This document shows, one piece after another, positions 10,701 through 46,898 of a DNA stretch of 64,000 nt; within the stretch, counting starts at the first letter, position 1; the number at the start of each line of letters is the position of its first letter. This stretch comes from Candidatus Magasanikiibacteriota bacterium (GTDB lineage Bacteria > Patescibacteriota > Patescibacteriia > Magasanikbacterales > GWA2-37-8). The stretch covers positions 88,980 through 152,979 of the forward strand of contig JACOYB010000006.1 in assembly GCA_016182085.1 (NCBI GenBank), read 5' to 3'. The translations under genes and the position numbers were made by a program. The notes below the pieces were generated by a model that was given only the letters and a program-made list of their open reading frames with translations, was not told the DNA's origin and ran no database searches.

Positions 10701-13700
10701 CTTGATACATTCTCTCCTTTCTACGATGACTTTAATCAGTTTGCGGCAGGAATAGTAACTAGTACGGCGGTGGCAACAGATACCGTGTCTCGTAAAGTTA
10801 CCGTTACCTTGGGTGTTTCTGGTTCTCCCGCGCCTAATGATAGTTTAACCATTGATTTGCGCAAAATAATTAACCCAGCTATTCCAAAAGATCCTTCAAC
10901 TGGTGGTTATACAGTAACGATCCAACTTACAAATAATGCCGGAACTACTGTTAAGGCCAGTAAAACAAGCATGCCATACTTTATTATGGCCGGTGGTACC
11001 AATACTTTAAATGTACAAGTAGTTGCTGGTGTAAATACCAGCACCCCGACTGCTGGTGCCAATGGTACGGTATTCATGCACGGTGGCGGTCCGGCAGGCC
11101 CTATGGATAAAAGTATTACTCTTACCAACGGTGTGATATCAGCCATTGACGGAACATCCGCTACCGGTATTAATTTTACCAATCTACCCAACGGTTGTTA
11201 CTTCCTGGGTACAGATCCGTTTGTTACTTTAGGCACGTTAGATTACTTTGGTCAGATGTCGCCGGAACCAATTTGTCTAAACGGCAGTGTCTCCACCACT
11301 AAGTATATCTTGCTTTCCCCAGCCACTAGCGGTGGCGGTTCGGTAACGGCTACAATTAAATTTTCTGGCATTACCAACTTTAATGGCGCAGATATTGATA
11401 TTTTTGCCGGTGGTCCGGGAAGATTTGTGGTTAAAACTTTATCAGGAGTCACCACTACTTTAGCTGCCGGCTATGATATAAAATTACCTGCCAATGGCCA
11501 GTGGTTTATTGGTGTGGGGCCAGCTATGCCAAAGGGAGCTTCAGGAGGTAAGCCCGTATCCCTTCCTGGCGTGCCACCATCTCCTATAACGTTAGAAGTA
11601 AGTGGTTTAGGCGGTGGTACTCCGACTCTAAGTCGTCCGTCTTCAATGCCGCTCGCTTCAGGCGTGGCGTTTAATGATACTACGGATATAATTACTTTTA
11701 GTTTTGCCACGGCGGATAAAGTAGTTACCGGAACAGTTAAAGATGGTGCCGGAAATGTATTATCAAGCATTGAAGTCTTTATGCATAGACAAGGTTTTGG
11801 CGCGCCTGTATTTGGCATAACCAATGCTTCCGGTACATTTAATTTATCCGTATCCGATTATGGATTATATGAAATAGGCGTGTTCAAAGACGGAATGCCG
11901 CCTTCCTTCAAGCAATTGGAAGTTAAGACAGATGGATCTGATGCCGACAGCAATCCGGATATATTCTTGCAAGGTAAACAAATAACGGGTTCCAATCCTT
12001 TGGTTTTGACTCTGAAAAAAGCTAATTATACAATCTCAGGTAAAGTTTTGGATTCCAGTAATAGTGCGGTAAGCTATGCTCCGGTTTTTGCTTCGGATGG
12101 TTCCGGCAATAGTGTGTTCGGACAAACAGGGTCTGATGGTAGTTATTCAGTATTTGTGGATGCTGGTACTTGGACAATTAGAGCAGAACTTCCTCCAAGC
12201 AAGACAGGTGATACTTGCGGAACATTCTCAAAGACCGTAACAGTAACTACCGAAAGTCAGTCCAGCCAAAATATTACTCCATCAACCGCCACCTGTTACA
12301 CATTAAGCGGAAGCGTGACAGTTGGTTCTGTTAACTTAAGTAATACGCCTATCTTTATTGAGGAGTGGGATGACGGAAGTAACAAGCCGGTACAAGGTGG
12401 TATAAAAAGAGGAACAGTTACAGATTCAAATGGCGCTTATTCAGCAAAAGTTATAGGCAGTAAAACCTACCGTATCGGCACGGTTGATCCTACCTATGGA
12501 GAATTGAGCGCAACTAAAGGGGTGGTGTCATCTGATGCAACTCAAAATATTTCAGTTGCTTCAACAAGCACAGTTAGCTTCGTATTTACTGGTGGAACAG
12601 CTAGTATGAACGGATTTATTGAATTAAAGAATACAAGCGATAAAACAAAGCGCGTGACCAAGCAAGTGACTGGTTTAAATACTACCACCGCACTCACAGT
12701 AGAAGCCTCTGTTACGTACAATTATTTTGTGGATGTATTCGGTGTCGGGAGGTTTACCGGAGAAGTGGTAGCTGGTAATACAGCTACCGTAAATCTCGGT
12801 GTTTCAGCCAATGCATTTATTACGGTTACCGGAACTATTTATAGTAACGAAACCGTATCTTCTACAGTCTTAGCAGGAACACTGGTTACATTCTTTAGTT
12901 CCAGTACTGGCATAACGCAAACTGCCACAGCTAATGCTAGCGGTACGTATAGTATAAATATCAAGGCTGGTACATATGAGGTTTCCGCGGATATTGCCAA
13001 CTATCTTCCTGGCCAAGCAGCTCAAATAACATCCTTTACTACAACTACTCCGGCCTACGACTTTGGTGGCGCAAGTCCAGATCAAGGATCCTTAATTGCT
13101 TCCAACCGTACTATAGAAGGATATGTTAGTAGTTCCGCCGGTGCCACGATTACTGATGGCTATGCCTGGGCAACGAACGCTTCCGGCACAGTCGTAACTG
13201 CAGCCATAGATTCAACCGGACGCTATTCATTGCCTGTAACGGATGGCAGTTGGACAGTAGAAGCTGTAGCAGCCGGTGCGTCCGAGACTACCAAATCTGG
13301 TGCAGTAACTATTTCTGGTTCAGATTCAGCAAATAATAATTTTGCTTTAACAAACGATGGTAGTCGTATAGCTACGTCTACAAGTGGCATAGTAGCAGCC
13401 AGTTCCGGAGGATCGGTTAATGATACAACCGGTACAGGAATTAAGATTTCAGCCGGGCAGGGAGTTTTGGAAACCGGTTCAGGAGATGTCTCAATAAGTT
13501 TAGAAAAAACCTTTACCGCGCCAGATACTAGTGGTTTTGATGCGTTAGCTAATGCAACCTTTAAAATATCTGCAACCGGTGATTCTACAATTAAGGACCT
13601 AAATGGCAACGCCGAAATTCAATTGGATTATTCGGCGATGGTCAGTCAAATCCCAAGCGGAGTTGCCGAGGCTGATTTGAAATTAATGTACTATTCAGCG

Positions 13701-32069: not shown

Positions 32070-33215
32070 TTAAATATTACCAAGTGCCTTCTTAATCTTT
32101 TCAATAATTTCTATCTCAACCTCTTTAATAGTTTTATTATTTAACGCAAATGTCGCGGTTTTTTTGTTCCCTTCCGACTGCAGTCCTTGTAAAAGTATTT
32201 TGGCATCATGGTGACGATCGGCATACAAAAAGCCGTGAATTTTGTTTTCTGCGCCCATGTCTTCGTATAGGAGTAAAATAATTTTTGCTTCCGGAGAATT
32301 ATGTATGAGTTCTTCGGTTAGTCCGCGCAGTTCTTCTTGGGTAGCGCCGGCTCGGGAAAAATCATCCCTCGTAATAGTTGTCCAAACTAGTCCTAGTTTG
32401 GGGTCATTTTGCATATGGGTTAGCGCGGTGCCCCAAATGCGAAGTGAAGCGATAGATTTAGTGCGGTAGAGGTTTTTAACAATCTTTTCTCTGTCTGCGC
32501 CCAGCGTTATGAGTTTGCTGGCAATGCTAAGCGTGGCCGGGCTTACATTGGCGGTTTTAAAACTTTGAGTTTGGCTAATCATGCCAGTTAGCAGCAGGGT
32601 AGCAATCTCGGCATCAATATCATGTTCAAATAATTGGGCGATAGTTTTATAAATATTTTCAGTTATGGCCGTACTATTTAAATCCACGAAATTGATTTGT
32701 CCGAAATGTTCGTTGCCCGGGTGATTATCAAAATTGATTACCGGTACTTTATAAAATAAATCCGTGTTATTAAAAAAAACATTCCCTAAGGATGCCAAAT
32801 CTTGGGAGTTTAAGACGATAATTAGATCATATTTTAATCCGGACTGAGCCGTGCGCAGTTCGTTTTTGGTAATGATGCCTTGTTTGGGCGTCAAATAAAT
32901 TGATAGCCAATTATCTTTAATATCATAGCTTAGGGTATCAATCTTAACATTACTAACGTCAACTTTGAGGATAAATTTTTGTAAATGGGAAAGTTGCGGC
33001 TGGATTCCTTCCAGGCCTTTAAGGAAGTTAAGGTTTTTTGGCACGACAAAACCGCTCGCGACAATATCAACCTGCTTGCGGTGTTTTTCAAGCAGTTTTT
33101 TAAGCGCCACACCGCCACAGATCGAATCAGTATTGTGATTGGCACTCGTTACTATCAAAATATGCTGGCTTTTTTCAACAGCTTGTCGTAATTGTTCAAT
33201 TTCGTTAAGAGCCAT
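32070..33215 (-). CDS. DHH-family phosphoesterase-like protein with degenerate motifs
   Basis: DHH fold (ILIVT..D, INFDNHPGNEHFGQIN, ATLLLTGMISQT.SF); DNH instead of DHH; minus-strand promoter TTGACA-17-TAAGAT at 33298-33270. Confidence 0.75.
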   Translation of the reverse strand: MALNEIEQLRQAVEKSQHILIVTSANHNTDSICGGVALKKLLEKHRKQVDIVASGFVVPKNLNFLKGLEGIQPQLSHLQKFILKVDVSNVKIDTLSYDIKDNWLSIYLTPKQGIITKNELRTAQSGLKYDLIIVLNSQDLASLGNVFFNNTDLFYKVPVINFDNHPGNEHFGQINFVDLNSTAITENIYKTIAQLFEHDIDAEIATLLLTGMISQTQSFKTANVSPATLSIASKLITLGADREKIVKNLYRTKSIASLRIWGTALTHMQNDPKLGLVWTTITRDDFSRAGATQEELRGLTEELIHNSPEAKIILLLYEDMGAENKIHGFLYADRHHDAKILLQGLQSEGNKKTATFALNNKTIKEVEIEIIEKIKKALGNI

Positions 33216-33361
33216 GGTGTTAAGTTAGTTATGGGTAGAACTAGGTTTAATTATTTTAAATAACAGCCTATCTTAGCAGAGTTTTCCCGGCTTGTCAACC
33301 CGTATTCTGGGGGGCAGTTCGTTTGATTTTTTTCCTTAATTTTAGTATTATACTAGTCGTT

Positions 33362-35953
33362 ATGACCGAATTGTCCAAGGCCTACGAGCCAAAGCAGTAC
33401 GAAGATGCAATCTATAAAAAATGGGAAGAATCAGGGTTATTTAACCCTGATGTTTGTGTTGAGAAAGGGGTAACAGAGCCAAAATCAGAACATTTCTCTA
33501 TTGTTCTGCCACCACCCAACGTTACTGGTACCTTGCATATGGGCCATGCTGCCATGCTGGCCATAGAAGATGTAATGGTGCGATACCACCGCATGAAGGG
33601 TGACCGTACACTATGGGTGCCTGGTACCGACCATGCTGCTATTGCTACCCAGGCCAAGGTAGAAAAGTTACTGATAGAGAATGAAGGCAAAACCAAATAT
33701 GATTTAGGAAGACCAGAATTTCTCAAACGAGTAGAGAAATTTGCTCAAGAAAGTCACGACACGATTGTAAATCAGGCCCGCAAAATGGGCGCATCTTTGG
33801 ATTGGAGCAGGGAAGCCTATACTTTGGATGAAAAAAGAAATTTGGCCGTGCGTACGGTGTTTAAAAAAATGTATGATGATGGGCTTATTTATCGCGGGCA
33901 CCGCATTGTAAATTGGGATCCAAAAGGTCAGACAGTTATCTCGGATGATGAAATTGTTTATGAAGAAAGAAAAAATAAGTTCTATACATTTAAGTATGGT
34001 CCGTTTGAGATAGGTACAGCCAGACCAGAAACAAAATTTGGTGATAAGTATGTGGTAATGCATCCGGATGATAAGAGGTATAAAAAATGGAAACACATGC
34101 AAAAAATTACCGTGGAATGGATTAATGCTCCGATTGAGGCGACTGTTATTAAAGACCCAATGATTGATATGGAATTTGGTACGGGAGTTATGACAATCAC
34201 CCCTTGGCATTCCCACGAAGATTTTGCGTTGGCAGAAAAATATAAATTAGATAAGGAGCAAATTATTGATAAAGAAGGAAAGTTATTGCCAATCGCGCAA
34301 GAATTTTCTGGAATGAAAATTACCGAAGCAAAAGATAAAATAGTTGAAAAATTAAAAACTAAAGGTCTGCTCGTTAGTGTAGATGAAAATTATATTAATA
34401 GAATTGCAACTGCCGAAAGAACCGGTGGTGTTGTAGAGCCTCAAGTTATGGAGCAATGGTTTGTAAACGTAAATAAACCTGTAAAAGAACGAGGCAATAA
34501 GACATTGAAAGAATTGATGCAGGACGTAGTAAAAAATAAGAAAATAGAAATAGTGCCTGATCATTTTGAAAAAACATATTTCCATTGGATAGATAATCTG
34601 CGTGACTGGTGTATTAGCCGTCAGATTTGGTTTGGACACCAGATTCCGGTTTGGTATAAAGGCGAAGAGGTTTATGTTGGTGTTGATGCTCCGGCAGGTG
34701 ATGGTTGGCAGCAAGACTCAGACACTTTGGATACTTGGTTTTCTTCTGGTCTGTGGACTTTTTCTACCTTGGGTTATCCAGATTTAAAGGCAGAAGATTT
34801 AAAAAACTATCATCCAACATCAGTAATGGAAACTGGTTATGATATCTTGTTTTTCTGGGTGGCGCGTATGATTCTTATGACCACCTATGTTTTGGGTGAT
34901 GTGCCGTTTAAAACTGTATACTTGCATGGACTAGTTCGAGACGAGCAAGGAAGAAAGATGAGTAAATCTTTGGGTAATGTTATCAATCCGCTAGATATGA
35001 TTGCCAAGTATGGTACAGATGCCACGCGCTTGTCTCTGTTGCTTGGAAATACACCTGGCAATGATATGAAGTTATCCGAAGAAAAAATTGCTGGCTTTAG
35101 AAATTTTACCAATAAACTTTGGAATATTTCTAGGTTTATGTTGTTAAATATCGAAGAGCCAAAAATAGACGTTAAAGAACCAAAAGCAAAAACTTTGGCT
35201 GATGAATGGATTTTGGAATCGCTGGAGATTATGAAATCTTTAGTTGAAGGCAGTATTGTAAAGTATAATTTTGCAATAGCAGGAGAAATGCTAAAAGAAT
35301 TTACATGGAATCATTTAGCAGATTGGTACTTGGAAATAGCAAAGGTAGAGGGTGGGAAGTCAGAAATTTTAAATTATATTTTAAACAATATTCTGAAGTT
35401 ATGGCATCCGTATATGCCATTTGTAACTGAATCAATTTGGCAGGAAGTTTATGGGGAGGGTAGGTCGCTAATGGTAGAAAAATGGCCATCGTCAGTACAT
35501 AGCTTAGGTTCATTTGGAGATGAAAGAAATGTGGACTTTTTAATCGTTAAAGAAGTGATAGAAAAAATTCGTTCTCTTAGGGCTGAATACAAAATTGAAC
35601 CAGCAAAAAAGATAGGTGCAAAAATTAATATTGGAAAGAAAGAAAAAGTAGTAAAAGATAATGAAGATATAATTAAAGCTTTAGCTCGGTTAGAAAAGTT
35701 AGAGTTTGTAGAATCTGGAGCAGAAATTGCTTTGGATTTGGCTGGGGCAGTAGATGTAGAAAAAGAAAAGCCAAGACTAGAAAAAGAAATTGCCGAAATA
35801 AAAAAGTATGTAACTGGTTTGGAAAATAAAGTATCAAATAAAGAATTTGTAGATAATGCGCCAAAAGCAGTAGTAGAAAAAGAACAAGAAAAATTAAGTG
35901 AAGCACAAAGTAAATTAGCTAAATTACAAGAACAACTTGCTAACCTAAAATAA
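33362..35953 (+). CDS. valS: valine--tRNA ligase
   Basis: PPPNVTGTLHMGH (HIGH), DWCISRQIWFGH, KMSKS, C-terminal coiled coil; start moved to ATG 33362. Confidence 0.96.
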   Translation: MTELSKAYEPKQYEDAIYKKWEESGLFNPDVCVEKGVTEPKSEHFSIVLPPPNVTGTLHMGHAAMLAIEDVMVRYHRMKGDRTLWVPGTDHAAIATQAKVEKLLIENEGKTKYDLGRPEFLKRVEKFAQESHDTIVNQARKMGASLDWSREAYTLDEKRNLAVRTVFKKMYDDGLIYRGHRIVNWDPKGQTVISDDEIVYEERKNKFYTFKYGPFEIGTARPETKFGDKYVVMHPDDKRYKKWKHMQKITVEWINAPIEATVIKDPMIDMEFGTGVMTITPWHSHEDFALAEKYKLDKEQIIDKEGKLLPIAQEFSGMKITEAKDKIVEKLKTKGLLVSVDENYINRIATAERTGGVVEPQVMEQWFVNVNKPVKERGNKTLKELMQDVVKNKKIEIVPDHFEKTYFHWIDNLRDWCISRQIWFGHQIPVWYKGEEVYVGVDAPAGDGWQQDSDTLDTWFSSGLWTFSTLGYPDLKAEDLKNYHPTSVMETGYDILFFWVARMILMTTYVLGDVPFKTVYLHGLVRDEQGRKMSKSLGNVINPLDMIAKYGTDATRLSLLLGNTPGNDMKLSEEKIAGFRNFTNKLWNISRFMLLNIEEPKIDVKEPKAKTLADEWILESLEIMKSLVEGSIVKYNFAIAGEMLKEFTWNHLADWYLEIAKVEGGKSEILNYILNNILKLWHPYMPFVTESIWQEVYGEGRSLMVEKWPSSVHSLGSFGDERNVDFLIVKEVIEKIRSLRAEYKIEPAKKIGAKINIGKKEKVVKDNEDIIKALARLEKLEFVESGAEIALDLAGAVDVEKEKPRLEKEIAEIKKYVTGLENKVSNKEFVDNAPKAVVEKEQEKLSEAQSKLAKLQEQLANLK

Positions 35954-35957
35954 CTTT

Positions 35958-37142
35958 ATGTCAGTAAATACCGGCGCGCAAAAAATCGAGGAGCTGTTAT
36001 CTAGGGGTGTAGAAAATATTTATCCGAAAAAAGAATTTTTGGAATCCAGGCTAAAATCCGGTGAGCAATTAACTTTGTATACCGGCTATGATCCAACTGC
36101 GCCGTCGCTTCATATTGGCCATGGTATTACCATGCTTAAACTGCGCCAATTTCAAGATTTGGGGCACAAAATTATTATGCTTATCGGAGATTTTACCGGC
36201 ATGATTGGCGACCCTACAGACAAAACTTCAGCCAGACAAAAATTAACCCGCAAACAAGTTTTGGAAAATTGCAAAAATTATAAAAAACAAGCAGAGGCTA
36301 TTTTGAATTTCAAAGGTTCAAACAAAGTAGAAGTAAAGTTTAATAGTAAATGGCTTGGTAAAATGAGTTTTGAAGATGTGGTAGAACTATCATCGCATTT
36401 TACTGTGCAAAGAATGTTGGAACGAGATATGTTTGAAAACAGAATGAAAGAAGAAAAGCCAATTTACCTTCATGAATTTTTGTATCCGCTTATGCAAGGC
36501 TATGATAGCGTGGCAATGGATGTGGATGGAGAAGTGGGTGGCAATGACCAGACATTTAATATGTTGGCCGGCCGAACGCTGATGAAAGGTTTAAAAAACA
36601 AAGAAAAATTTGTACTCACTACCAAGTTATTAGTAGATGCCAGTGGAAAGAAAATGGGCAAAACCGAAGGCAACATGGTTTCTCTTTCCGATAAACCGGA
36701 AGATATGTTTGGCAAAGTTATGAGCTGGACAGACGAAATGATGAGCAAAGGATTTGAGCTATGCACCACTTTGCCAATGGATGAGGTAAAGAAGTTGGAA
36801 TCATCTACGCCAAATCCGCGTGATCTAAAATTAAAATTGGCCTTCGAGATTGTAAAAACATTTTTAGGAGAAAAGTTTGCCAAGTCTGCGCAAGAGAATT
36901 TTCACAGGGTTTTTCAAGAAAGATCTAAACCGCAAGAAATTCCAGAATTAAAACCAAGCGTCAATGATATTATTACAGTTTTGGTGGAGTCGCAAATTTG
37001 CAAGAGTAAATCCGAAGCGCGCCAGGTAATAGCCCAGGGCGGGGTAAAAATAAATGATAAGAAGGTAGAAGCTATAGACGTTCAGGTAAAAGCGGGCGAT
37101 GTAGTGCAAAAAGGCAGTAGATTTTTTGTGAAAATTGTTTAG
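35958..37142 (+). CDS. tyrS: tyrosine--tRNA ligase
   Basis: GYDPTAPSLHIGH, YPLMQGYD, GGNDQTFN, KMGKT, C-terminal S4 domain. Confidence 0.96.
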   Translation: MSVNTGAQKIEELLSRGVENIYPKKEFLESRLKSGEQLTLYTGYDPTAPSLHIGHGITMLKLRQFQDLGHKIIMLIGDFTGMIGDPTDKTSARQKLTRKQVLENCKNYKKQAEAILNFKGSNKVEVKFNSKWLGKMSFEDVVELSSHFTVQRMLERDMFENRMKEEKPIYLHEFLYPLMQGYDSVAMDVDGEVGGNDQTFNMLAGRTLMKGLKNKEKFVLTTKLLVDASGKKMGKTEGNMVSLSDKPEDMFGKVMSWTDEMMSKGFELCTTLPMDEVKKLESSTPNPRDLKLKLAFEIVKTFLGEKFAKSAQENFHRVFQERSKPQEIPELKPSVNDIITVLVESQICKSKSEARQVIAQGGVKINDKKVEAIDVQVKAGDVVQKGSRFFVKIV

Positions 37143-37200
37143 GGAGTAGGGCGTAAGAAGTAAGGAGTAGTGAGTAGAGAAAATTTATCCTTTTTGTGGT

Positions 37201-37292
37201 TCCTCCCCCTATAAGGGGGAGGATAAAGGAGGGGGTTTAAAGACAATAAAAATAAAACCCCACCCTCTGTCCCTCCCCTTATAGGGGAGGGA
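37201..37292. repeat. CCCCT-TATA-AGGGG double-hairpin palindromic element between tyrS and argS
   Basis: tcctcccccTATAAgggggagga (37201-37223) and tccctccccTTATAggggaggga (37270-37292) linked by ggggttt/aaacccc arms. Confidence 0.75.
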
Positions 37293-37331
37293 GCCACCTA
37301 CTAGTAGTCGTGGCAATGACGAATAAAAATT

Positions 37332-39107
37332 ATGGAAAAATTTCTTGGTGAAATAAAAAAAGTATTAAATAAAGTCGGAGTGTCTGGTGAAATTGATCTG
37401 ACAACCCCGCCAAATCCGGAAATGGGTGATTTTGCCTTTGCTTGTTTTAATATTGCTAAAGAGTGGAAAATGAGCCCAGTAGAGGCGGCCAAAACGATTG
37501 AAGCAAGAATCAAGAATTATGAATTAAGAATTATAGACAGAGTACAAGCCATGGGCCCGTACGTTAATTTTTATTTAAAAGCATCAGAGTTAGCTAAAAT
37601 TGTGCTTGGTGAAATTCAGAAAAAAGGTAAAAAATACGGCATAAATAATTCCGGCAAAGGTAAAAAAGTTTTGATTGAGTATCCGTCCAATAATACCCAC
37701 AAAGAATTTCATATTGGCCACCTGCGCAATGTTTGTATTGGAAATTCTTTGGTGCAGCTTTATGAACAAAATGGCTATAAAGTTTATCCGGTAAATTATC
37801 TAAATGATTTTGGCAATCATGTGGCCAAATGTTTGTGGGGCTTAATTAAATTTCATAAAGATGAAAAACCGCCAGCCAATAAACAAAAATGGCTGGGAGA
37901 AATTTACGCGGAGGCTTCAAAAAAATTAACTGAACCCGATGCTTTGGCTATTAAAACACCTGGTTTGGCAGAGCAGGTAGGCGATATGGGTAAAGCTGAA
38001 GATCTTGAATATACAGTACAGAAATATAGAGAAGAAGTCGCTGAAATCCAAAAGCAAATAGAGAGCCAAGACCCAAAGATCTGGAAAGTATTTATGCAAA
38101 CCAGGCAGTGGAGCATAGATAAGTTTGAAGAAATATTTAAACAGTTGGGTGTAGAGCATAAAGCCGTTTTTTATGAAAAAGACCTAAAGGATAAAGGGCA
38201 AAAAATGGTAGATGATTTGCTAAAAAAGGGTATAGCCCAAGTAGGCGAGGGTGGAGCGATTATTATAGATTTAAGCGAATATAAACTTGATATAGCATTG
38301 CTTCGCAAATCAAATGGCGCAGGACTGTATTTAACTAGCGACTTGCCGCTAGCCATGGAAAAGTTCAAAAAATGCAACGCAGACGAAAGTATTGTGATTA
38401 CCGGCACGGAACAAAATTTTTATTTCAAACAACTTTATAAAATTTTGGAACTAATTGGGTTTAACAAAAAGTTAACTCATATTGGCTATGGACTCGTAAA
38501 TCTAAAAGAAGGAAAAATGTCTTCGCGCTTAGGCAATGTTATTTTGTACGAAGATTTATATGCAGAAGTTTTTGCAATGTTAAAAGCCGAATCCGTGGAA
38601 CGACATCCGGATTGGAGTGAGAAGAAGATAAACAACAATGTAAGTGTGCTGGCTATGGCCGCCCTCAAGTTTGATATGCAAAAGCACGAAGCTGCCAAAA
38701 ATATTACTTTTGATGCCAAAGAAGCCACTTCTTTTGAAGGGTTTAGCGGTCTTTATGTACTCTATGCCATCGCCAGAATAAATAGCATTTTAAAACAATC
38801 AAAAAAATCCAAAGCGAAAATAGATTATAATCTGCTGGATAAGCCGGAAGAAAAACACCTGGTATTATTTTTGGCAAAATATGAAGAAGTGGTTAAAAGC
38901 GCTTTGATGAACTACAACCCATCGGAAATTACTCGTTATTCTTTTGATTTAGCGCAATCATTCAATGATTTTTATAACAAACATAGTATTCTGAAAGCGG
39001 AGACAGAAAGTTTGGTGGCCGCTCGTTTGCAGTTAGTTGGCGCCGCCAAAAATGTTTTGGAAAATTCGCTTGGATTGCTCACAATTGGAACTGTAGAGGA
39101 AATGTAA
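37332..39107 (+). CDS. argS: arginine--tRNA ligase
   Basis: GDFA, EYPSNNTHKEFHIGHLRN, KMSSRLG, YVLYAIARINSIL, FNDFYNK. Confidence 0.95.
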   Translation: MEKFLGEIKKVLNKVGVSGEIDLTTPPNPEMGDFAFACFNIAKEWKMSPVEAAKTIEARIKNYELRIIDRVQAMGPYVNFYLKASELAKIVLGEIQKKGKKYGINNSGKGKKVLIEYPSNNTHKEFHIGHLRNVCIGNSLVQLYEQNGYKVYPVNYLNDFGNHVAKCLWGLIKFHKDEKPPANKQKWLGEIYAEASKKLTEPDALAIKTPGLAEQVGDMGKAEDLEYTVQKYREEVAEIQKQIESQDPKIWKVFMQTRQWSIDKFEEIFKQLGVEHKAVFYEKDLKDKGQKMVDDLLKKGIAQVGEGGAIIIDLSEYKLDIALLRKSNGAGLYLTSDLPLAMEKFKKCNADESIVITGTEQNFYFKQLYKILELIGFNKKLTHIGYGLVNLKEGKMSSRLGNVILYEDLYAEVFAMLKAESVERHPDWSEKKINNNVSVLAMAALKFDMQKHEAAKNITFDAKEATSFEGFSGLYVLYAIARINSILKQSKKSKAKIDYNLLDKPEEKHLVLFLAKYEEVVKSALMNYNPSEITRYSFDLAQSFNDFYNKHSILKAETESLVAARLQLVGAAKNVLENSLGLLTIGTVEEM

Positions 39108-39130
39108 AATATTTGTTGAATATTTTGTTT

Positions 39131-40150
39131 ATGGCGCAAGACAATTATAAGTCGTGGCTTATCAATACAGAAGATTTTCCTAAGGAGTCTGCGCTACCGG
39201 CGCAGCTTAAATTTTTATTGCAGTTTGCGATTTTGGCTCCCTCTACGCACAATTCTCAGCCTTGGCAGTTCAAAATAGATAGCAACAAGATTTATATTTT
39301 GCCAAATTTTGATAAAGCGCTGCCTGTGGGAGATAAGGAAAACCATTTTCTTTTTTTAAGTTTGGGTTGCGCGTTAGAAAATTTATTAGTCGCGGCGCAG
39401 TATTATGGTTTTAGTTTTATAATAAAATATCCTTCTTCTGGTGACAAAAAAATTGAAATTACTCTTACAAAAATAGAAAAGTCGGGCGTTGCAGAAGAAA
39501 GCCTGGTTTCTTATATCGCCAAGCGCATTACGAATCGTCATAAGTTTACAGATAAGTTGCCGGCAGAAGAATTTTTAAATACAGTTCGTAGTTTGGGCAC
39601 AGAAAGTATGAGTGTAGATGTGCTTTCTCCGGGAGAAAAAAATAATAAGGTAAAACAGCTAGTGGGGAGAATCACTCCCAAGTTATTAAATGAGCCAAGT
39701 TTTCGCAGGGAATTATCCGGCTATGTAAAAACAAATATTACAAAATCAAAATTTGGGATGCCGGCTTTTGTGATGGATGTTCCCAACTTTTTATCTCTTT
39801 TTGTGCCAACCATACTAAAGTTTGTAAATATTGAAAAATTAAATAAAAAAAAGCAGGAGGGCGCCATAAGCGCCGCGATTTTTATTGTGATTAGCGCTAA
39901 AAATAACAACGAAGAAGATTGGGTTAAAACCGGACAAGCTTTTCAGAAAATTAATTTGTTGGCTACAAAATTTAATTTATTTACTCATCCAATGGCCGCG
40001 CCTTTACACGATATAGAAAGCCGTAAGGAATTGCAGGAAATATTACAGACCAGCTTTAATCCGCACTTTTTGTTTCGTCTTGGGTACGGAGCGGTAGAAC
40101 CAAAGCATAGTCCGCGAATGACAGTAGACGATTGTATGATCGTAGAATAG
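39131..40150 (+). CDS. Acg/Rv3127-like FMN-binding nitroreductase-superfamily protein
   Basis: LAPSTHNSQPWQF, SLGCALENL, RITNR, GQAFQK, LFRLGY...HSPR. Confidence 0.85.
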   Translation: MAQDNYKSWLINTEDFPKESALPAQLKFLLQFAILAPSTHNSQPWQFKIDSNKIYILPNFDKALPVGDKENHFLFLSLGCALENLLVAAQYYGFSFIIKYPSSGDKKIEITLTKIEKSGVAEESLVSYIAKRITNRHKFTDKLPAEEFLNTVRSLGTESMSVDVLSPGEKNNKVKQLVGRITPKLLNEPSFRRELSGYVKTNITKSKFGMPAFVMDVPNFLSLFVPTILKFVNIEKLNKKKQEGAISAAIFIVISAKNNNEEDWVKTGQAFQKINLLATKFNLFTHPMAAPLHDIESRKELQEILQTSFNPHFLFRLGYGAVEPKHSPRMTVDDCMIVE

Positions 40151-40156
40151 TAATTT

Positions 40157-41227
40157 ATGGATATTTCTAAGTATAAAAATTTAAAAGAGTTTGATAGCCA
40201 TGCTTTGGTTGTAGAGTTGGATGAGCCAAGCGTTGGTTTAAAAGGTTTTATAGCTATAGATAGAAAAGCCGAAAATTTTCCAGCCTTGGGAGCTACTCGT
40301 TTGTGGAAGTATCCTTTGGAAGAGGACGCTTTAAATGATGCTCTGCGTTTGGCAAAGTTAATGGGTAAAAAATCAGCGATGGCAGGCCTGCCTTATACAG
40401 GCGCCAAAGCGGTGCTTATGTTGCCCGAAGAAGGAATAAAGAATCGCGAAGAATATTTTAAAGTATATGCTCAAAAAGTAAATGAACTCTCTGGTCAGTT
40501 TATTACCGGTACGGATGTTGGTTTGACCGATAATGATCTAGAGATAATGAGCAAAAATTCTAAATTTGTAATTGGAATGAATGTTCCGGCGGCGTATTAT
40601 ACAGCTGTCGGTGTTTTTAATGTTATTAGAGAAAGTTTGGAATATAAATTTGGCAGTGAAAATATTTCCAGCAGAACTTTTGCTATACAAGGTTTGGGAA
40701 AAACGGGTTATGAATTATTAAAATTACTGTATGCAGAAGGGGCAAAAATATTTGTTTCCGAAATAAATATAGATATTTTAGAACAAGTTTGTCGTGATTT
40801 TCCCCTGGTAAAAAAAGTTTTACCGGCAGATATACATAAGCAAGAAGTGGATGTTTTTTGTCCTTGCGCTATGAGTCATTCTATAAATAGTCGCACGGTC
40901 AGCGAATTGAAGTGTGTGATTGTGGCTGGTTCTGCAAACAACCAGCTAGAAGATGAAGAGGCGGGAGAAAAACTGCATAAGATGGGCATTGTGTATGCTC
41001 CGGATTATTTATCAAATTCCGGCGGTTTGATTAGCGTGGTAGATCAATTTGAAAATAAAAAACATGACAATAAAAGAATATTATTAAAATTGAGCAAGAT
41101 ACCGGCAGTTTTACGAGCTATTTTTTTAAGAAGTGAAAAAGAGCGCAGATCGATTAGTAGTGTTGCAGACGATATGGTGCAAGAATCTTTAGTCAAAGAG
41201 GTTAGTGTTGGGGTGCGTAGTTATTAA
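40157..41227 (+). CDS. Glu/Leu/Phe/Val dehydrogenase (Leu/Phe-DH-like)
   Basis: PALGATR, RLAKLMGKK..AGLPYTGAKAV, FITGTDVG, QGLGKTG, PCA, AGSANNQL, YAPDYLSNSGG. Confidence 0.9.
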   Translation: MDISKYKNLKEFDSHALVVELDEPSVGLKGFIAIDRKAENFPALGATRLWKYPLEEDALNDALRLAKLMGKKSAMAGLPYTGAKAVLMLPEEGIKNREEYFKVYAQKVNELSGQFITGTDVGLTDNDLEIMSKNSKFVIGMNVPAAYYTAVGVFNVIRESLEYKFGSENISSRTFAIQGLGKTGYELLKLLYAEGAKIFVSEINIDILEQVCRDFPLVKKVLPADIHKQEVDVFCPCAMSHSINSRTVSELKCVIVAGSANNQLEDEEAGEKLHKMGIVYAPDYLSNSGGLISVVDQFENKKHDNKRILLKLSKIPAVLRAIFLRSEKERRSISSVADDMVQESLVKEVSVGVRSY

Positions 41228-41234
41228 ATATAGT

Positions 41235-42767
41235 ATGAATAAATATTTTTTAAGCTTATATAAAAAAAGCCTTGTTTCCAAGCTATCTTTTCTTAAAAGA
41301 AAAGATTCTGAAGTTATGGACAGAGTGGGGGAAAAGGAATCAGTTAAATTGTTTAACTTTGTAAGTAGGCGCGTGGTTGCGTACCAAAAATTTTTAAAAG
41401 AAAATAAAGTAGCTATCAAAAAGATTGTAAATATTAAAGACTTTAAAAAATTACCATTAATTTCAAAAGAAAATTATATAAGAAAGCACGATTTAGCAGA
41501 TTTGCTCCCCCCCAAAGAATTTGCCAACGCTACTACTTTTTCTGCCACTTCCGGCTCTACAGGTGAGCCGACGTTTTTTCCGCGCGGCGAAGATCAGGAC
41601 AAGAATTATGAATTTATTTCTGAAATATTTTTAACAAATCAACTCGGTCTGTCCAAGAAAAAAAGTACGCTTGTTATAATAGGTTTTGGACTGGGTGTTT
41701 GGATAGGCGGTATTTTTACTTATAAAAATTTTAATAAATTGGCCAGCAAGGGCTACAAGATATCTATATTGCCGGTCGGTCCTCAAAAAGACATGTTTCT
41801 AAAGTCTCTAAAGAAATTTGGAAGATTGTTTGATCAAGTTATTTTGGCAGGTTATCCGCCTTTTATCAAGGATATAGTTGATGAAAGCGCTGGTTATGGC
41901 ATTGATTGGGCTAAATGCAATACAAAAATTTTAACCGCAGCCGAGAGCTATTCGGAAGATTTTAGAGACTATATTGCAAAAAAAATTAAAGCCAAAAATA
42001 TTTTTACTGATTTTATAAATATATATGGAACAGTCGAGTTGGGAACTATGGCGCACGAAACCCCTTTGGCAATTTTGATACGCAGATTAGCCTGCAAAAA
42101 TAAAGATATTTTTAAGGCAGTTTTTAACAATTCTGCCAGGCTTCCTACGTTGGGGCAGTATCATCCGTATCTGGTTTATTTCGAAGAGTTAGAGGGCGAA
42201 TTGGTAGGAACGGGTGTTGGTTCATCCATACCATTAATTCGTTACAAATTTGCCGATCGCGGGGGCGTTATTTCTTTTAAAGAGATGGTAGGGCGCCTAA
42301 AGAGTGTGGGGGTAGATATTATAAAAGAAGCTGCAAAAAATGGAATTGGTAAAACTGTTCTTAATCTTCCGTTTGTATATGTATATGAGAGAAGTGATTT
42401 GGTCGTAAATTTAATGGGAATAAATATATATCCGGAGTATATTAAAAGCGGGTTGCAAAAAAGCGGCATAGAAGAAAAAGTTACCGGTAAATTTTCTATG
42501 GCGACTAAAAATGATAAAAATCAGGATCAGTTTTTGGAAATTAATGTGGAATTAAAAAATGGCGAAGCGCCCTCATCGCAGTTGGTAAAATTAATTGAAA
42601 ATTTTGTTGTGATTTCCTTGCAAGAAAAATCCACGGAGTATGATTATTTGTACAAAAATAGTTCGGAAGAATCCAGGAAAAAAATAACTCCCAAAGTTTT
42701 ATTATTTAATTATGAAGATAAAACCTATTTTGCTCCCGGAGCAAAGCAGAAATGGGTCTTAAAATAA
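41235..42767 (+). CDS. phenylacetate-CoA ligase (PaaK)-like adenylate-forming enzyme
   Basis: FKKLPLISK, ATSGSTGEP, NIYGTVE, PLIRYKFADRG, GINIYPE; start moved to ATG 41235. Confidence 0.85.
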   Translation: MNKYFLSLYKKSLVSKLSFLKRKDSEVMDRVGEKESVKLFNFVSRRVVAYQKFLKENKVAIKKIVNIKDFKKLPLISKENYIRKHDLADLLPPKEFANATTFSATSGSTGEPTFFPRGEDQDKNYEFISEIFLTNQLGLSKKKSTLVIIGFGLGVWIGGIFTYKNFNKLASKGYKISILPVGPQKDMFLKSLKKFGRLFDQVILAGYPPFIKDIVDESAGYGIDWAKCNTKILTAAESYSEDFRDYIAKKIKAKNIFTDFINIYGTVELGTMAHETPLAILIRRLACKNKDIFKAVFNNSARLPTLGQYHPYLVYFEELEGELVGTGVGSSIPLIRYKFADRGGVISFKEMVGRLKSVGVDIIKEAAKNGIGKTVLNLPFVYVYERSDLVVNLMGINIYPEYIKSGLQKSGIEEKVTGKFSMATKNDKNQDQFLEINVELKNGEAPSSQLVKLIENFVVISLQEKSTEYDYLYKNSSEESRKKITPKVLLFNYEDKTYFAPGAKQKWVLK

Positions 42768-42772
42768 TTTTT

Positions 42773-43837
42773 ATGCAGTTTCCAATTATATTGGCTGAAG
42801 GCAGTTACAACCAAGCAGATTTGGATTTGTTAATAAAAAATAACGAGATCGTAAAAACGGTTGATATTTATGCTCAGCAAATGACCGAGTATTTTGAAAT
42901 TTCAAACCCAGCCTTGAAGGGGAGTACAGATTTGCCCGCGGCCGCAAAAAAGTATGTGGATGAAAATATGAGCAAGGGAAAGCTCTTTGGTAGTTGGATA
43001 TATTATCCTTGGAGCAGGGTTTTGGTTCACTCGGTAACGCAGGATAAATATTTTGAACTGCGAACTAACCGTAATAAAAATTTAATAGATGCAAAAGAAC
43101 AAGAAAAGCTGTATAATTTAAATGTGGGCGTGCTCGGGCTATCTATAGGGAGCAGTATGGCCATTGGTTTGGCATATAGCGCCATAGCAGGGCAAATGAA
43201 GTTGGCAGATTTTGATACTCTGTCTACTTCTAATTTAAACAGGTTGAAAGCGAAGATGTCCGATGTGGGAAGAAAAAAAATAGAGATAGCCGCGGAACAG
43301 ATATTTGAAATAAATCCGTATCAAAATCTAGAGCTATTTGAAAATGGAGTAGATAAAAATTCGTTGGATAGTTTTTTGGCAGAAAACCCTAAACCGGAAT
43401 TAATTTTTGAAGCAATTGATGATTTTGAAATAAAAATTCGTCTGCGTATGGCGGCGCGAAATCTGGGTATTCCGGTTATTATGTTGACCAACTTGGGCGA
43501 TAGCTTGCTTGTAGATGTGGAAAGATACGACAAGGATAAAACAACCCCTATTTTAAATGGGATGATTGAGCAGTCGGTGGTAGAAGAGATTTTGTCTGGG
43601 CGCTGTAGTGAGGCGGATAAAAATAGATTTGCCGTACAGGTGGTGGGTGTAGAAAATGTGCCCAAGAGAGCGATGGATTCTCTAAAAGAGATAGGGTTAA
43701 GCCTTGTCGGTCGCCCGCAGCTTATGAGCACAGTTACGATAGGGGGCGGTCTAGCTTCTTTTTTAGCTAGGAAGATTGCTCTTGGAGAAGATTTGCCAAG
43801 TGGAAGAAAAATAATAAAGTGGGATGAGCTAATTTAA
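42773..43837 (+). CDS. ThiF/MoeB E1-like adenylyltransferase, Rv1355c(MoeY)-like N-terminal part
   Basis: WIYYPW, LRTNRNKNLI..EQ, GVLGLSIG, LADFDTLSTSNLNR, DVERYD, RPQL. Confidence 0.85.
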   Translation: MQFPIILAEGSYNQADLDLLIKNNEIVKTVDIYAQQMTEYFEISNPALKGSTDLPAAAKKYVDENMSKGKLFGSWIYYPWSRVLVHSVTQDKYFELRTNRNKNLIDAKEQEKLYNLNVGVLGLSIGSSMAIGLAYSAIAGQMKLADFDTLSTSNLNRLKAKMSDVGRKKIEIAAEQIFEINPYQNLELFENGVDKNSLDSFLAENPKPELIFEAIDDFEIKIRLRMAARNLGIPVIMLTNLGDSLLVDVERYDKDKTTPILNGMIEQSVVEEILSGRCSEADKNRFAVQVVGVENVPKRAMDSLKEIGLSLVGRPQLMSTVTIGGGLASFLARKIALGEDLPSGRKIIKWDELI

Positions 43838-43841
43838 TTTT

Positions 43842-44717
43842 ATGGATGCGGAGAAAAAACTCGCAGACAAAATGGGGGTGAGCTATAAAATTAATCAGTG
43901 TTTAATAGACGGTTTTAACATTAATTATTTGGTGGCCGGAGAAGGCGAGCCGTTATTGCTCATACATGGGGCAAACATAGGCTGGGGAATGTGGTATTTA
44001 AATATACCGGAGTTGTCAAAAAAATATAAAGTTATCGCCCTAGACTTGCCTGGTGCCGGCGTTTCCGATAGCTTAGATTTTAAAAATATTGACCTGGAAA
44101 AAATATTTGTTCAGTTAATAGAAAACTTTTTGCATTTTTTAGAAGTAGATAATATAAGGGTGGTTGGGCATTCTTTCGGCGGTTGGATCGCCATGAAGCT
44201 GGCTATTGTGAGTAAGATAAATATTAAAAAAATTGTACTAAGCGATTCTTTGGGGTTTAGTACAAGTATTCCGGCATCTCAGTGGCCTGCAACGGTTGGC
44301 GCGCTCGCAAAATTTATTTCTAAAACATTTTTTAGAGCTACAAGATCAAACATGGATAGGTTTTTAAGCAGCGCTTTTTATAGTAAAACGTCTGTATCCG
44401 AATTGTTTTATCAGTATTATTTTGAATCATTGCTTGGTTCCGATATGCGCCACCCTTTATTATTTTTTAACGGGCTGTCATCTTTTTTGAGAATGCGGAA
44501 AGAATTAGATTTGAGAAGTAGCCTTAGTTTAATTAAGCAGCCGGTATTGGTGGTATGGGGAAGCGAAGACAAAAACGTAGTATATAAAAATAGTAAAGAT
44601 TTTTTTAAACTAATACCAAACCATAAGGTGGAGATTATAAAAGAGGCAGGGCATGTGCCGTCTTTAGAAAAAAGTAATTTATTTAACAGTTTGGTTTTAA
44701 ATTTTTTTCAAGATTAA
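43842..44717 (+). CDS. alpha/beta-fold hydrolase
   Basis: LLIHG, ALDLPGAG, GHSFGG nucleophile elbow, WGSED, AGHVP. Confidence 0.9.
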   Translation: MDAEKKLADKMGVSYKINQCLIDGFNINYLVAGEGEPLLLIHGANIGWGMWYLNIPELSKKYKVIALDLPGAGVSDSLDFKNIDLEKIFVQLIENFLHFLEVDNIRVVGHSFGGWIAMKLAIVSKINIKKIVLSDSLGFSTSIPASQWPATVGALAKFISKTFFRATRSNMDRFLSSAFYSKTSVSELFYQYYFESLLGSDMRHPLLFFNGLSSFLRMRKELDLRSSLSLIKQPVLVVWGSEDKNVVYKNSKDFFKLIPNHKVEIIKEAGHVPSLEKSNLFNSLVLNFFQD

Positions 44718-44727
44718 TTAGTATAGT

Positions 44728-46347
44728 ATGTTGGGGGACGTTTTATATTTTAAAGAAGTTATCGTTGGGGCCGTGGTGATTTGTAATATACTTATTACTT
44801 ACGCGGTATATGTAAGTAATAAAAAAAGCGCCACAAATAGAGTATTTTTGCTGTTAGGCCTAGTCATCTCTTTTTGGCTTTTAGCCATGTATTTATCGGT
44901 AAATCCTCAGGTAAACCTATTTTGGACGCGCCAGAGCGCTTTTTGGGCCACGTTTATGAGCTTTTTGCTATTTTTGCTGGCCTATGTTTTGCCGGGAGAA
45001 AGGTTTTTGTTAAGTAAAAAGAACCTTTTTTATACAGTCGCACCAACGATTTTTATAACAGCCTTGACATTTACGCCTTATGTTTTTGAAAAAATAACTA
45101 TTAGCGCCGCAGGTTCAAAGGTGGCTGTGGGATTTGGGATAATTCCATTTAGTTTACTCACAACATTTTTTAGCGTATTCGCTGTTTATTTATTATTAAA
45201 AAAATTACACAAGTCATCACAAGTGGAGCGTCGCCAGCTGGGACTTGTTTTAACAGGATTTTTCTTAATGCTCGGACTCATCATTTTTACGATTCTAATC
45301 CCCGTTATTTTTTTAAGAGATAATTTTTTTGTTCAGTTTGCGCCGGTGTATGTTTTTTTCTTCTTGGCCGCTACCGCTATCGCAATCATAAAGTATCATT
45401 TGTTTAATATTAAAGTTATTGCCACAGAGGTCTTAGTATTGATTTTGATAATGGTTTTATTAATTGAAGGCGCTCTCTCCGGTTCTATATTTACAGTTAT
45501 TTTTAAAGTCTCATTTGCGATTTTGGTAGGTATTATCGGTATTTTATTGGTACGAAGCGTGCAAAAAGAAATTAAACAAAAAGATGAATTATCTAATCTG
45601 GCTGCTTCTTTGGAAAAAGCCAATACGCGTTTGCAAGAACTGGATAAACAGAAAACCGAATTTTTAACAATTGCCTCTCATCAGCTGCGCACCCCGCTTT
45701 CTATTTTAAAAGGATATATAGAGCTGATAAAAGACGGTAGTTATGGCAAGATTGAACCTGCTACAGCCAAAGTATTGGATGATATGGATCTTAACAACGA
45801 GCATTTGGTAAAGTTGGTAGATACGCTACTCGATATTACTCGCATCGAACAGGGCCGCACTAAATATTCATTTGCCATGAATAATATCTGTGCTTTAATT
45901 GACGAATCAGTAAGCGACTTAAAATTAAAAGCTAAAGAAAAGAAAATGAAATTAGTTTGGACATGTCCTAAGAAAATGACTGATGTGTGCTGTGATCAAG
46001 AAAAAATGCACCATGTTATTTATAACTTTATTGATAACGCCTTAAAGTATAGCGAGAAAGGTTCTGTAAAAGTAACGCTGAAAGAAGAAGGTGGGGGCAT
46101 TGCGATGAAGGTAGTCGACAATGGGATTGGCTTTAATAAAGTGGATGAAAATAATTTTTTTCATAAATTTTATCGCGGTGACAATGTACGGACTATTGGC
46201 ATCAGCGGCACCGGTTTGGGGCTCTATGTCTGCCGAAAATTCGTGGAAGCGCATAGCGGCCGGGTGTGGGCTCATAGCGAAGGATTGGGAAAAGGCAGTG
46301 AATTTGGCTTTTGGATTCCGGTTAAACCCCCCGCTCCAGCCGGGTAG
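44728..46347 (+). CDS. membrane sensor histidine kinase with a multi-TM N-terminal input domain
   Basis: about 8-9 hydrophobic helices; SHQLRTPL H-box, NFIDNALKYS, DNGIG, GTGLGL, GKGSEF. Confidence 0.92.
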   Translation: MLGDVLYFKEVIVGAVVICNILITYAVYVSNKKSATNRVFLLLGLVISFWLLAMYLSVNPQVNLFWTRQSAFWATFMSFLLFLLAYVLPGERFLLSKKNLFYTVAPTIFITALTFTPYVFEKITISAAGSKVAVGFGIIPFSLLTTFFSVFAVYLLLKKLHKSSQVERRQLGLVLTGFFLMLGLIIFTILIPVIFLRDNFFVQFAPVYVFFFLAATAIAIIKYHLFNIKVIATEVLVLILIMVLLIEGALSGSIFTVIFKVSFAILVGIIGILLVRSVQKEIKQKDELSNLAASLEKANTRLQELDKQKTEFLTIASHQLRTPLSILKGYIELIKDGSYGKIEPATAKVLDDMDLNNEHLVKLVDTLLDITRIEQGRTKYSFAMNNICALIDESVSDLKLKAKEKKMKLVWTCPKKMTDVCCDQEKMHHVIYNFIDNALKYSEKGSVKVTLKEEGGGIAMKVVDNGIGFNKVDENNFFHKFYRGDNVRTIGISGTGLGLYVCRKFVEAHSGRVWAHSEGLGKGSEFGFWIPVKPPAPAG

Positions 46348-46427
46348 TTGGTTTTTTTATAAAAATAGTATATAATTACTCTGTATAATTTAATCATTTT
46401 TTCACTACATAATTAATATCCATTACT

Positions 46428-46898
46428 ATGATTTTCCAAAGAAATTCCTCCAAAGTGGCTCCAGAAAATAATGAGCCAGAAGTTCTTGATGAATCGCGAC
46501 CGGATATTCATGATGAAGTGGAAACCGTGGTTGGTCCATCGGTAAATGTAGAGGGTGATTTTGCCTCCGAAGGAAATATCGTTGTAAAAGGAACGGTATC
46601 GGGCAGCGTGTTTACCAGCAAACATTTAACCGTGGAAATGGGCGCAAAGATTATTGCCAATGTCCGGGCAGGCAGCGCTACAATTGCCGGAGAGGTAAAG
46701 GGAAATATGAAAATTAAGGAGTCGCTTGAATTAACTTCCACGTCAAAAGTTATTGGCGATATAGACATGAAAGATTTGAGGATTGAATCCGGTGCGACGC
46801 TGTATGGTAAAGTAACCATGCCGGGAGTAGAAGCTGAAAAACCGATCAAAACAAAAACTTTTAAAAAATCCGAAGAAGCCGCGCCGCTTTTTGGTTAA
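46428..46898 (+). CDS. bactofilin (polymer-forming cytoskeletal protein)
   Basis: TVVGPSVNVEGD..SEGNIVVKG.VSG, IAGEVKGN, IESGATLYG beta-helix repeats. Confidence 0.9.
   Translation: MIFQRNSSKVAPENNEPEVLDESRPDIHDEVETVVGPSVNVEGDFASEGNIVVKGTVSGSVFTSKHLTVEMGAKIIANVRAGSATIAGEVKGNMKIKESLELTSTSKVIGDIDMKDLRIESGATLYGKVTMPGVEAEKPIKTKTFKKSEEAAPLFG

Follow-up and report, generated by a model that had tools for sequence, protein, structure and literature searches.

Between argS (37332..39107, plus strand) and a bactofilin gene (46428..46898, plus strand; open reading frame and family match), the 64,000-nucleotide stretch of a Candidatus Magasanikiibacteriota genome analyzed here (the window) carries a cassette of six intact genes, all on the plus strand, separated by gaps of 6, 7, 5, 4 and 10 bp and starting 23 bp behind argS. 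An initial annotation had described six co-oriented genes with this span, order, families and flanks, and open reading frames and family matches confirm it on each of these points. The first gene (39131..40150) encodes an Acg/FDO-type nitroreductase-fold protein of 339 aa, a predicted flavin-dependent desaturase (NF047509, 205.5 bits; cut-off 199). It is followed by a Leu/Phe/Trp-type amino-acid dehydrogenase of the ELFV family (40157..41227, 356 aa; PF00208/PF02812), predicted to supply a 2-oxo acid; a PaaK-like adenylating ligase (41235..42767, 510 aa; assigned by fold and a weak match to TIGR02155, E 2.7e-10), predicted to form an amide bond; a TrzS/Rv1355c-type ThiF protein (42773..43837, 354 aa; NF005901, E 4.2e-85), a predicted ATP-dependent cyclase; an alpha/beta hydrolase (43842..44717, 291 aa; PF00561 and motifs), predicted to be cytoplasmic, with the triad S111-D243-H271; and a histidine kinase (44728..46347; PF16927 HisKA_7TM, HisKA and HATPase_c). 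The kinase divides into a HisKA_7TM sensor half with about eight predicted helices (44728..45600) and a core in which H318 and the N, G1 and G2 boxes are intact (45601..46347). All six genes are under purifying selection (ratio of nonsynonymous to synonymous rates, dN/dS, 0.06-0.09 against a congener), and the 4-10 bp spacing suggests that the synthase genes and the membrane kinase are co-transcribed. The host is a member of the candidate phyla radiation (CPR) of the Magasanikbacteria type with a genome of 1.06 Mb (98.9% complete), and a ligase homologue at 92% identity comes from Candidatus Magasanikbacteria.

The kinase is a mosaic. The five enzyme genes and the sensor half of the kinase form a single exchangeable module (39114..45600, plus strand) to which the host-tracking kinase core does not belong, and both the mosaic and the swapping of the whole block between relatives go beyond the initial annotation. 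DNA similarity to congeners carrying other alleles is lost at the argS stop codon and regained near kinase codon 290 (~45600), and blastn breakpoints against five such congeners lie at 39007-39114 and 45382-45607. Compared with a congener that carries a reductase allele (G442), the kinase core of the window is 89% identical and the sensor 22%, whereas compared with a genome that carries the same allele as the window (G071) the sensor is 92% identical and the core 77%. The same is seen away from the window, where G158 and G450 share 93% identity in argS and 98% in the kinase core and only 18% in the sensor; across congeners with other enzymes, sensor identity to the window is 16-28%. Synonymous distance between the window and G071 is 0.56-0.79 within the module and at least 1.3 outside it, a difference that would follow from exchange of the module after divergence of the flanks.

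Phylogenies of the two kinase halves give the same picture. In the sensor tree, all eight multi-member enzyme-set groups each form one clade with support of 98-100, and the approximately unbiased (AU) test rejects a genus clade (p 9e-37, with long branches among the other alleles); in the core tree, the genus clade is supported at 99/97 and the AU test rejects a cassette clade (p 6e-123). Sensor identity is 36-93% within an enzyme type (median 63%) and 11-32% between types (median 19%). For 19 held-out kinases, a set that excludes three untyped loci, the two divergent kinases of G334, the sensor-less kinase of G417 and the second kinase of G449, the nearest sensor gave the enzyme type in 19 of 19 cases and the nearest core in 2 of 19. 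Phylum-wide partial correlations, for which related genomes are not independent, are likewise higher with the sensor than with the core for both the ligase (0.36 vs 0.21) and ThiF (0.48 vs 0.22). Two features of pherotype loci are thus present, a sensor that varies with the synthase and a core that tracks the host. What this co-variation records is co-travel and long co-divergence, not binding.

The argS-bactofilin slot was read in the window and in a further 64 loci (4 + 20 + 20 + 20, the final 20 having been picked as kinase-bearing and G158 occurring twice), and nine enzyme sets were found in it. The six-gene order of the window is present in six genomes of the order (the window, G071, G281, G449, G439 and G523). 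Alternatives are ligase-ThiF-nitroreductase with a different feeder gene (3 loci); GNAT-ThiF-nitroreductase (6 genomes), in which a GNAT-fold gene replaces dehydrogenase and ligase; two reductase-like types (8 and 6 loci), which weakly match PigE and acyl-ACP (acyl carrier protein) reductase, type a being assigned from motifs only; a methyltransferase (3); a FabH-like gene (2); a GNAT-like gene with a pyruvoyl decarboxylase (2); and an ATP-grasp gene (1). Three loci could not be typed, and many carry neither enzyme nor kinase; within the order, 140 of 201 genomes were found to have the seven-transmembrane (7TM) kinase. How close the carriers of different sets can be is illustrated by G506, which is near-conspecific with the window (pilM 99%, bactofilin 100% identical) and yet has a reductase allele and a sensor only 21% identical; its argS, at 79% identity, was exchanged together with the slot. 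In the decarboxylase allele, a pyruvoyl histidine-decarboxylase-like gene and the GNAT-like gene stand ahead of the kinase (L079:3670-5176, L250:3009-4441), an arrangement pointing to an acylated amine, for example N-acyl histamine, as possible product. G449 (L087:2057-5279, 10983-11822) has a second sensor kinase of the same type behind the first, with a divergent core that has no HisKA match; ahead of its cassette lies a kinase core that lacks a sensor.

Beyond the slot, 401 genomes of the phylum were surveyed: ThiF occurs in 41, the ligase in 43 and both in 36, where independence would predict about four shared genomes (again among kin that are not independent). Our 43 ThiF loci comprise 40 that were fetched, two from a pattern-based contig scan (one a duplicate) and the window; counting the duplicate, ligase and kinase are each present in 35 of them, and nitroreductase, dehydrogenase and hydrolase in 31, 10 and 4, respectively. 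Seen from the ligase, a 7TM kinase, detected with a profile made from the kinases of these loci, lies within five genes downstream in 43 of 50 gene rows (duplicate excluded, some rows cut at contig ends), and this adjacency recurs at many unrelated chromosomal sites. The place of the dehydrogenase beside the ligase is otherwise filled by an aromatic ammonia-lyase, an aminotransferase, a gene resembling short-chain dehydrogenases/reductases (SDR-like), a methyltransferase or nothing; the amino-acid deaminating feeders vary among dehydrogenase, aromatic ammonia-lyase and aminotransferase. Natural fusions join dehydrogenase, PaaK-like ligase and ThiF (P0002), PaaK-like ligase and ThiF (P0004), and ThiF and nitroreductase (P0005), and in three database proteins the hydrolase is fused to ThiF, directly (P0003) or in a ThiF-nitroreductase-hydrolase chain (P0001, P0006). 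These fusions, which were read as proteins only and may include read-through artefacts (two are NCBI records), link all five cassette enzymes.

The conserved core is thus the PaaK-like ligase, the TrzS-type ThiF and the 7TM kinase, often with the nitroreductase, and is present in ~10% of the 401 genomes, while dehydrogenase and hydrolase are accessories, the latter of the window allele. The expectation that the gene set would be conserved together elsewhere therefore holds for this core and, in six genomes, for the full gene order, but not for the two accessories. Synteny, gene fusions and the co-variation of sensor and enzymes support the proposal that the operon makes and senses a small molecule. 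By contrast, the role of signal destroyer that had been given to the hydrolase finds no support: the gene is rare (3 of 42 distinct ThiF loci), no membrane anchor is predicted for it and it is found fused to ThiF, all of which agrees better with tailoring or release than with erasing the signal.

Variant arrangements were seen along the way. In several lineages, all six GNAT-type alleles among them, the nitroreductase gene is found between the rest of the cassette and the kinase but is read from the opposite strand (L036:8359-9321, L043:2289-3257, L054:7035-8042, L069:1813-2937, L070:8356-9468). One family (L105, L106 and L107 with L059, L060 and L062) has the ligase-kinase pair and ThiF on separate contigs, and its ThiF adjoins sugar-epimerase and aminotransferase genes. 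In two genomes ligase and kinase are accompanied by a ThiF of a different, shorter type (263-276 aa; L094:9146-9937, L096:6471-7301). The SDR-like gene, a divergently transcribed NAD-binding gene of ~370 aa with no assigned family, stands ahead of ligase-ThiF-kinase in L049, L050, L056 and L057, and the sensors of these loci partly cluster. The window's host has a second HisKA_7TM kinase (G000:C11:219704-222480; L103:5705-8481), preceded by a 248-aa gene that is GNAT-like by eye, has no Pfam or NCBIfam match and lies behind an OmpR-type regulator; this is possibly a second enzyme-sensor pair.

The cassette has a G+C of 0.368 against a genome mean of 0.418, with 1.2% of 988 same-length windows equally low; the initial annotation was right that it is more AT-rich than the downstream flank (0.421) and wrong for the upstream valS-tyrS-argS block (33001-39107), which has 0.373. 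Because that block is similarly low, the dip marks the cassette only on its downstream side, and we rejected AT-richness as a sign of a foreign island. Promoter and terminator scans gave counts not above those in shuffled sequence (47 vs 43.3 and 17 vs 12.6), and a weak hairpin with a T-run across the kinase stop codon (46336-46358) is not above chance.

The catalytic motifs of the enzymes are intact, except that the CPR nitroreductases have no conserved equivalents of TrzS R540 and Q651. The nitroreductase keeps the flavin mononucleotide-site motifs S38-N41-Q43-P44-W45, R132, R136, R316 and R329. The best PDB matches of the dehydrogenase are leucine (LeuDH, E 5e-65), tryptophan (TrpDH, 2e-54) and phenylalanine dehydrogenase (PheDH, 1e-39), among which its substrate is not resolved; K72, K84, D120 and the GxGxxG motif, which we take to be the functional residues, align with LeuDH. 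For the ligase, a predicted model with a mean local confidence (pLDDT) of 89 ranks PaaK first among fold matches, followed by NatL2, ClxA, AjiA1 and GH3; it scores only 39 bits against the PaaK family TIGR02155 (cut-off 646), and its SGSTG loop, YG, D341 and K504 are conserved across 36 homologues. In a FastTree phylogeny of the ligase the feeder genes cluster only partially, so the acyl donor cannot be read from the tree. ThiF matches the Rv1355c family NF005901 over the ThiF half of the model and reaches 286 bits with the TrzS family, no other family giving more than 72; its D216, equated with the ATP-site D217 of TrzS by offset from other mycobacterial homologues, is kept in 46 of 46 CPR homologues.

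Altogether, we favor a model whereby the locus is an exchangeable enzyme-plus-sensor module that makes a small signal, which the module's own sensor would detect and pass to the fixed kinase core and maybe on to a pilus receiver. The dehydrogenase would convert a scavenged branched or aromatic amino acid to its 2-oxo acid; the PaaK-like ligase would adenylate this acid or a derivative and couple it to an amino acid without coenzyme A (CoA), in place of OxzA, TyzA or TrzA; ThiF would close the ring of the N-acyl amino acid to give an oxazolone; the nitroreductase-fold protein would desaturate it; and the hydrolase may trim, release or ring-open it. ThiF-nitroreductase clusters can give ring-open dehydro-tyrosines (PMC12479983), which suggests one possible role for the hydrolase. 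A CoA-free ligation is favored because neither CoaE nor CoaB turned up in the 98.9% complete host genome and because the fold relatives NatL2 and ClxA are reported to make amides or esters directly from adenylates (PMC12519233); the host has one carrier protein and one thiamine pyrophosphate enzyme, and CoA for the ligase could be scavenged. That a dehydrogenase/ligase pair takes the place of an OxzA-type acyltransferase, as the initial annotation had it, is supported by the congeners that have a GNAT-fold gene, ThiF and nitroreductase there and no ligase or dehydrogenase; this GNAT-fold gene has weak fold matches to LasI (E 9e-4), RpaI and FeeM, with atlas leads below 0.9. The sensor is probably specific for the product of its own cassette. 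As that product we tentatively propose an N-acyl-amino-acid oxazolone or the ring-opened form of one.

The candidate output is a receiver. No response regulator adjoins the cassette, and of the five receivers in the host genome four adjoin other kinases, while the fifth stands alone in a type IV pilus operon in the order pilM-receiver-pilin-pilD (G000:C3:52195-52581; L101:7196-7585). This arrangement was found in 29 of the 30 genomes first checked, and the link appears order-specific because no receiver was seen beside pilM in 15 genomes outside the order. When 82 genomes were scored (G433 from its empty locus only, and G417 as having a kinase without sensor), all 34 scorable kinase-bearing genomes proved to have an intact receiver, two more being cut by contig ends. 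Of 45 genomes in which the kinase was not found, 27 have a decayed receiver or have lost it, one additional genome being undetermined. The 27 cases comprise Asp-to-Glu (11) and Asp-to-Ser/Ala (6) replacements, degenerate receivers (3) and no match (7); replacement of a phospho-acceptor Asp by Glu often mimics phosphorylation. An intact receiver was predicted to go with a kinase, which proved true of G223, G441, G334 and G447, as the converse did of G308. The linkage of kinase and receiver is suggestive, not established, and we lean slightly towards the view that the host-fixed core phosphorylates this receiver.

Several results weigh against the model. The receiver is intact in 18 of the 45 genomes in which the kinase was not found (G448, G407, G412 and 15 other fragmented genomes, for which the prediction failed); all 18 are in at least 30 contigs, and in a post hoc comparison all 14 kinase-less genomes with at most 20 contigs have a broken receiver. 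The tree requires 10 receiver-state changes, and an independent-pair test gave three pairs in the same direction, none opposite and nine without difference (p 0.25), with further tests giving 5/5 (p 0.06, in a subset chosen afterwards) and p 0.125, none below 0.05. As to the chemistry, TrzS R540 and Q651 have no conserved equivalents in CPR nitroreductases, true CoA ligases are the top fold matches of the ligase, and the characterised oxidases of oxazolone pathways are reported to depend on O2 (PMC12856293, PMC10404671). The nitroreductase is absent from 12 of 43 ThiF loci and a feeder gene from many, several ligase-kinase pairs have no ThiF nearby, and no exporter gene lies within the cassette. 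Finally, enzymes and sensor are physically linked and the types are too divergent to recombine, so linkage alone would also keep the pairs together.

That last point is the basis of a reading in which the enzymes make an effector against the host or competitors and the kinase responds to another cue, the pair being held by flank linkage. N-acyl tyrosines are cited as antimicrobial or community-shaping (in PMC12856293), and linkage is indeed forced where the flanks are the sole homology; however, every enzyme type is matched by a separate, deeply diverged clade of sensors that is conserved within the type, ligase-kinase adjacency recurs at unrelated sites, and ligase and ThiF similarity follow the sensor more than the core across the phylum, which makes this reading improbable. 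A stronger contender, still unlikely in our judgment, is that the product stays in the producer cell or its membrane and builds up with host-derived amino acids (or O2), so that the kinase would read the feeding state. Its substrates would be amino acids, the cassette sits so closely behind argS (23 bp) that there is no space for a promoter of its own, the missing exporter fits, tryptazolones are reported mainly in the cell pellet (PMC12856293) and pili of Saccharibacteria mediate host attachment (PMC11623550). A private sensor, however, would gain little from swapping nine chemistries among close kin, and such diversification is described as typical of pherotype loci (PMC12935306).

It is least probable of all that ThiF and ligase modify a protein, peptide or tRNA in the manner of E1 enzymes or of ribosomally synthesized and modified peptide pathways, perhaps acting on the kinase or a pilin. 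Most characterised ThiF enzymes target such molecules (PMC12596934), and tRNA-synthetase genes surround the locus, but gaps of 4-10 bp are too small for a precursor peptide gene, the ThiF score on the TrzS family far exceeds that on any other, and the other alleles encode small-molecule enzymes. The signal module remains our preferred model, in which signalling would be kin- or density-specific and each enzyme set with its sensor would be one dialect, as in agr or ComQXP. We further speculate, with distinctly less assurance, that Magasanikbacterales possess a plug-in locus, in which a single host-bound kinase core feeds the receiver of the pilus operon while synthase and matching sensor come from at least nine enzyme sets, and by which near-identical strains speak unrelated dialects that steer pilus-driven host attachment or movement, the window allele making oxazolones without CoA.

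Among known systems, the cassette is closest in its chemistry to TrzAS (Rv1356c-Rv1355c), TyzACB and OxzAB, with which it shares a TrzS-type ThiF, including the ATP-site Asp, and, by family match, a putative Acg/FDO-type oxidase. Unlike these, which have an acyl-CoA N-acyltransferase, the window allele has no adjacent N-acyltransferase and a PaaK-like ligase and amino-acid dehydrogenase instead; moreover, it has a dedicated 7TM kinase, and the oxidase is optional. ThiF and nitroreductase are separate genes, as the initial annotation noted, but this split is not new, since TyzB and TyzC are already separate (PMC10404671). The ligase shares its fold with NatL2, AjiA1 and ClxA of benzoxazole pathways, which form amide or ester bonds before heterocyclisation (PMC12519233), at only 12-16% identity; ring closure is by an amidohydrolase in those pathways and predicted to be by ThiF here. 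Ind3 is reportedly another PaaK-like ligase of the NatL2, AjiA1 and ClxA group. Oxazolones have been suggested as signals, a suggestion described as untested (PMC12856293; OxzB preprint), and the locus offers a first test of this idea and possibly a CoA-free oxazolone route. For a self-made signal with a matching receptor in CPR bacteria we found only homology predictions in the literature: Bernard et al. 2020 (PMC7567580) list CqsA, LuxI and PpyS homologues adjoining sensor kinases in CPR genomes, pairs predicted by homology to known synthases, and the parts consulted describe neither swapping nor output, with no occurrence of ThiF in the main text and none of 7TM in the nine supplements searched. 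No published description of the cassette was found in the mostly open-access literature searched. The control of CPR pili has been called an open question (PMC11623550). Matched enzyme-sensor pairs are open to testing in E. coli, with no need for a culture of the host; nine alleles on one kinase core make a natural specificity panel, and HisKA_7TM, an uncharacterised domain, gains a candidate class of ligands from the model.

The organization of the locus resembles that of a pherotype locus such as agr of Staphylococcus; in agr and ComQXP, too, the sensor half of the kinase varies while the core stays with the host. In ComQXP of Bacillus the signal-making genes vary with the sensor and so form pherotypes (PMC12935306). 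Unlike these systems, the cassette has no adjacent response regulator, and whereas the alleles of ComQXP and agr are variants of one peptide pathway, the slot described here swaps unrelated enzyme families.

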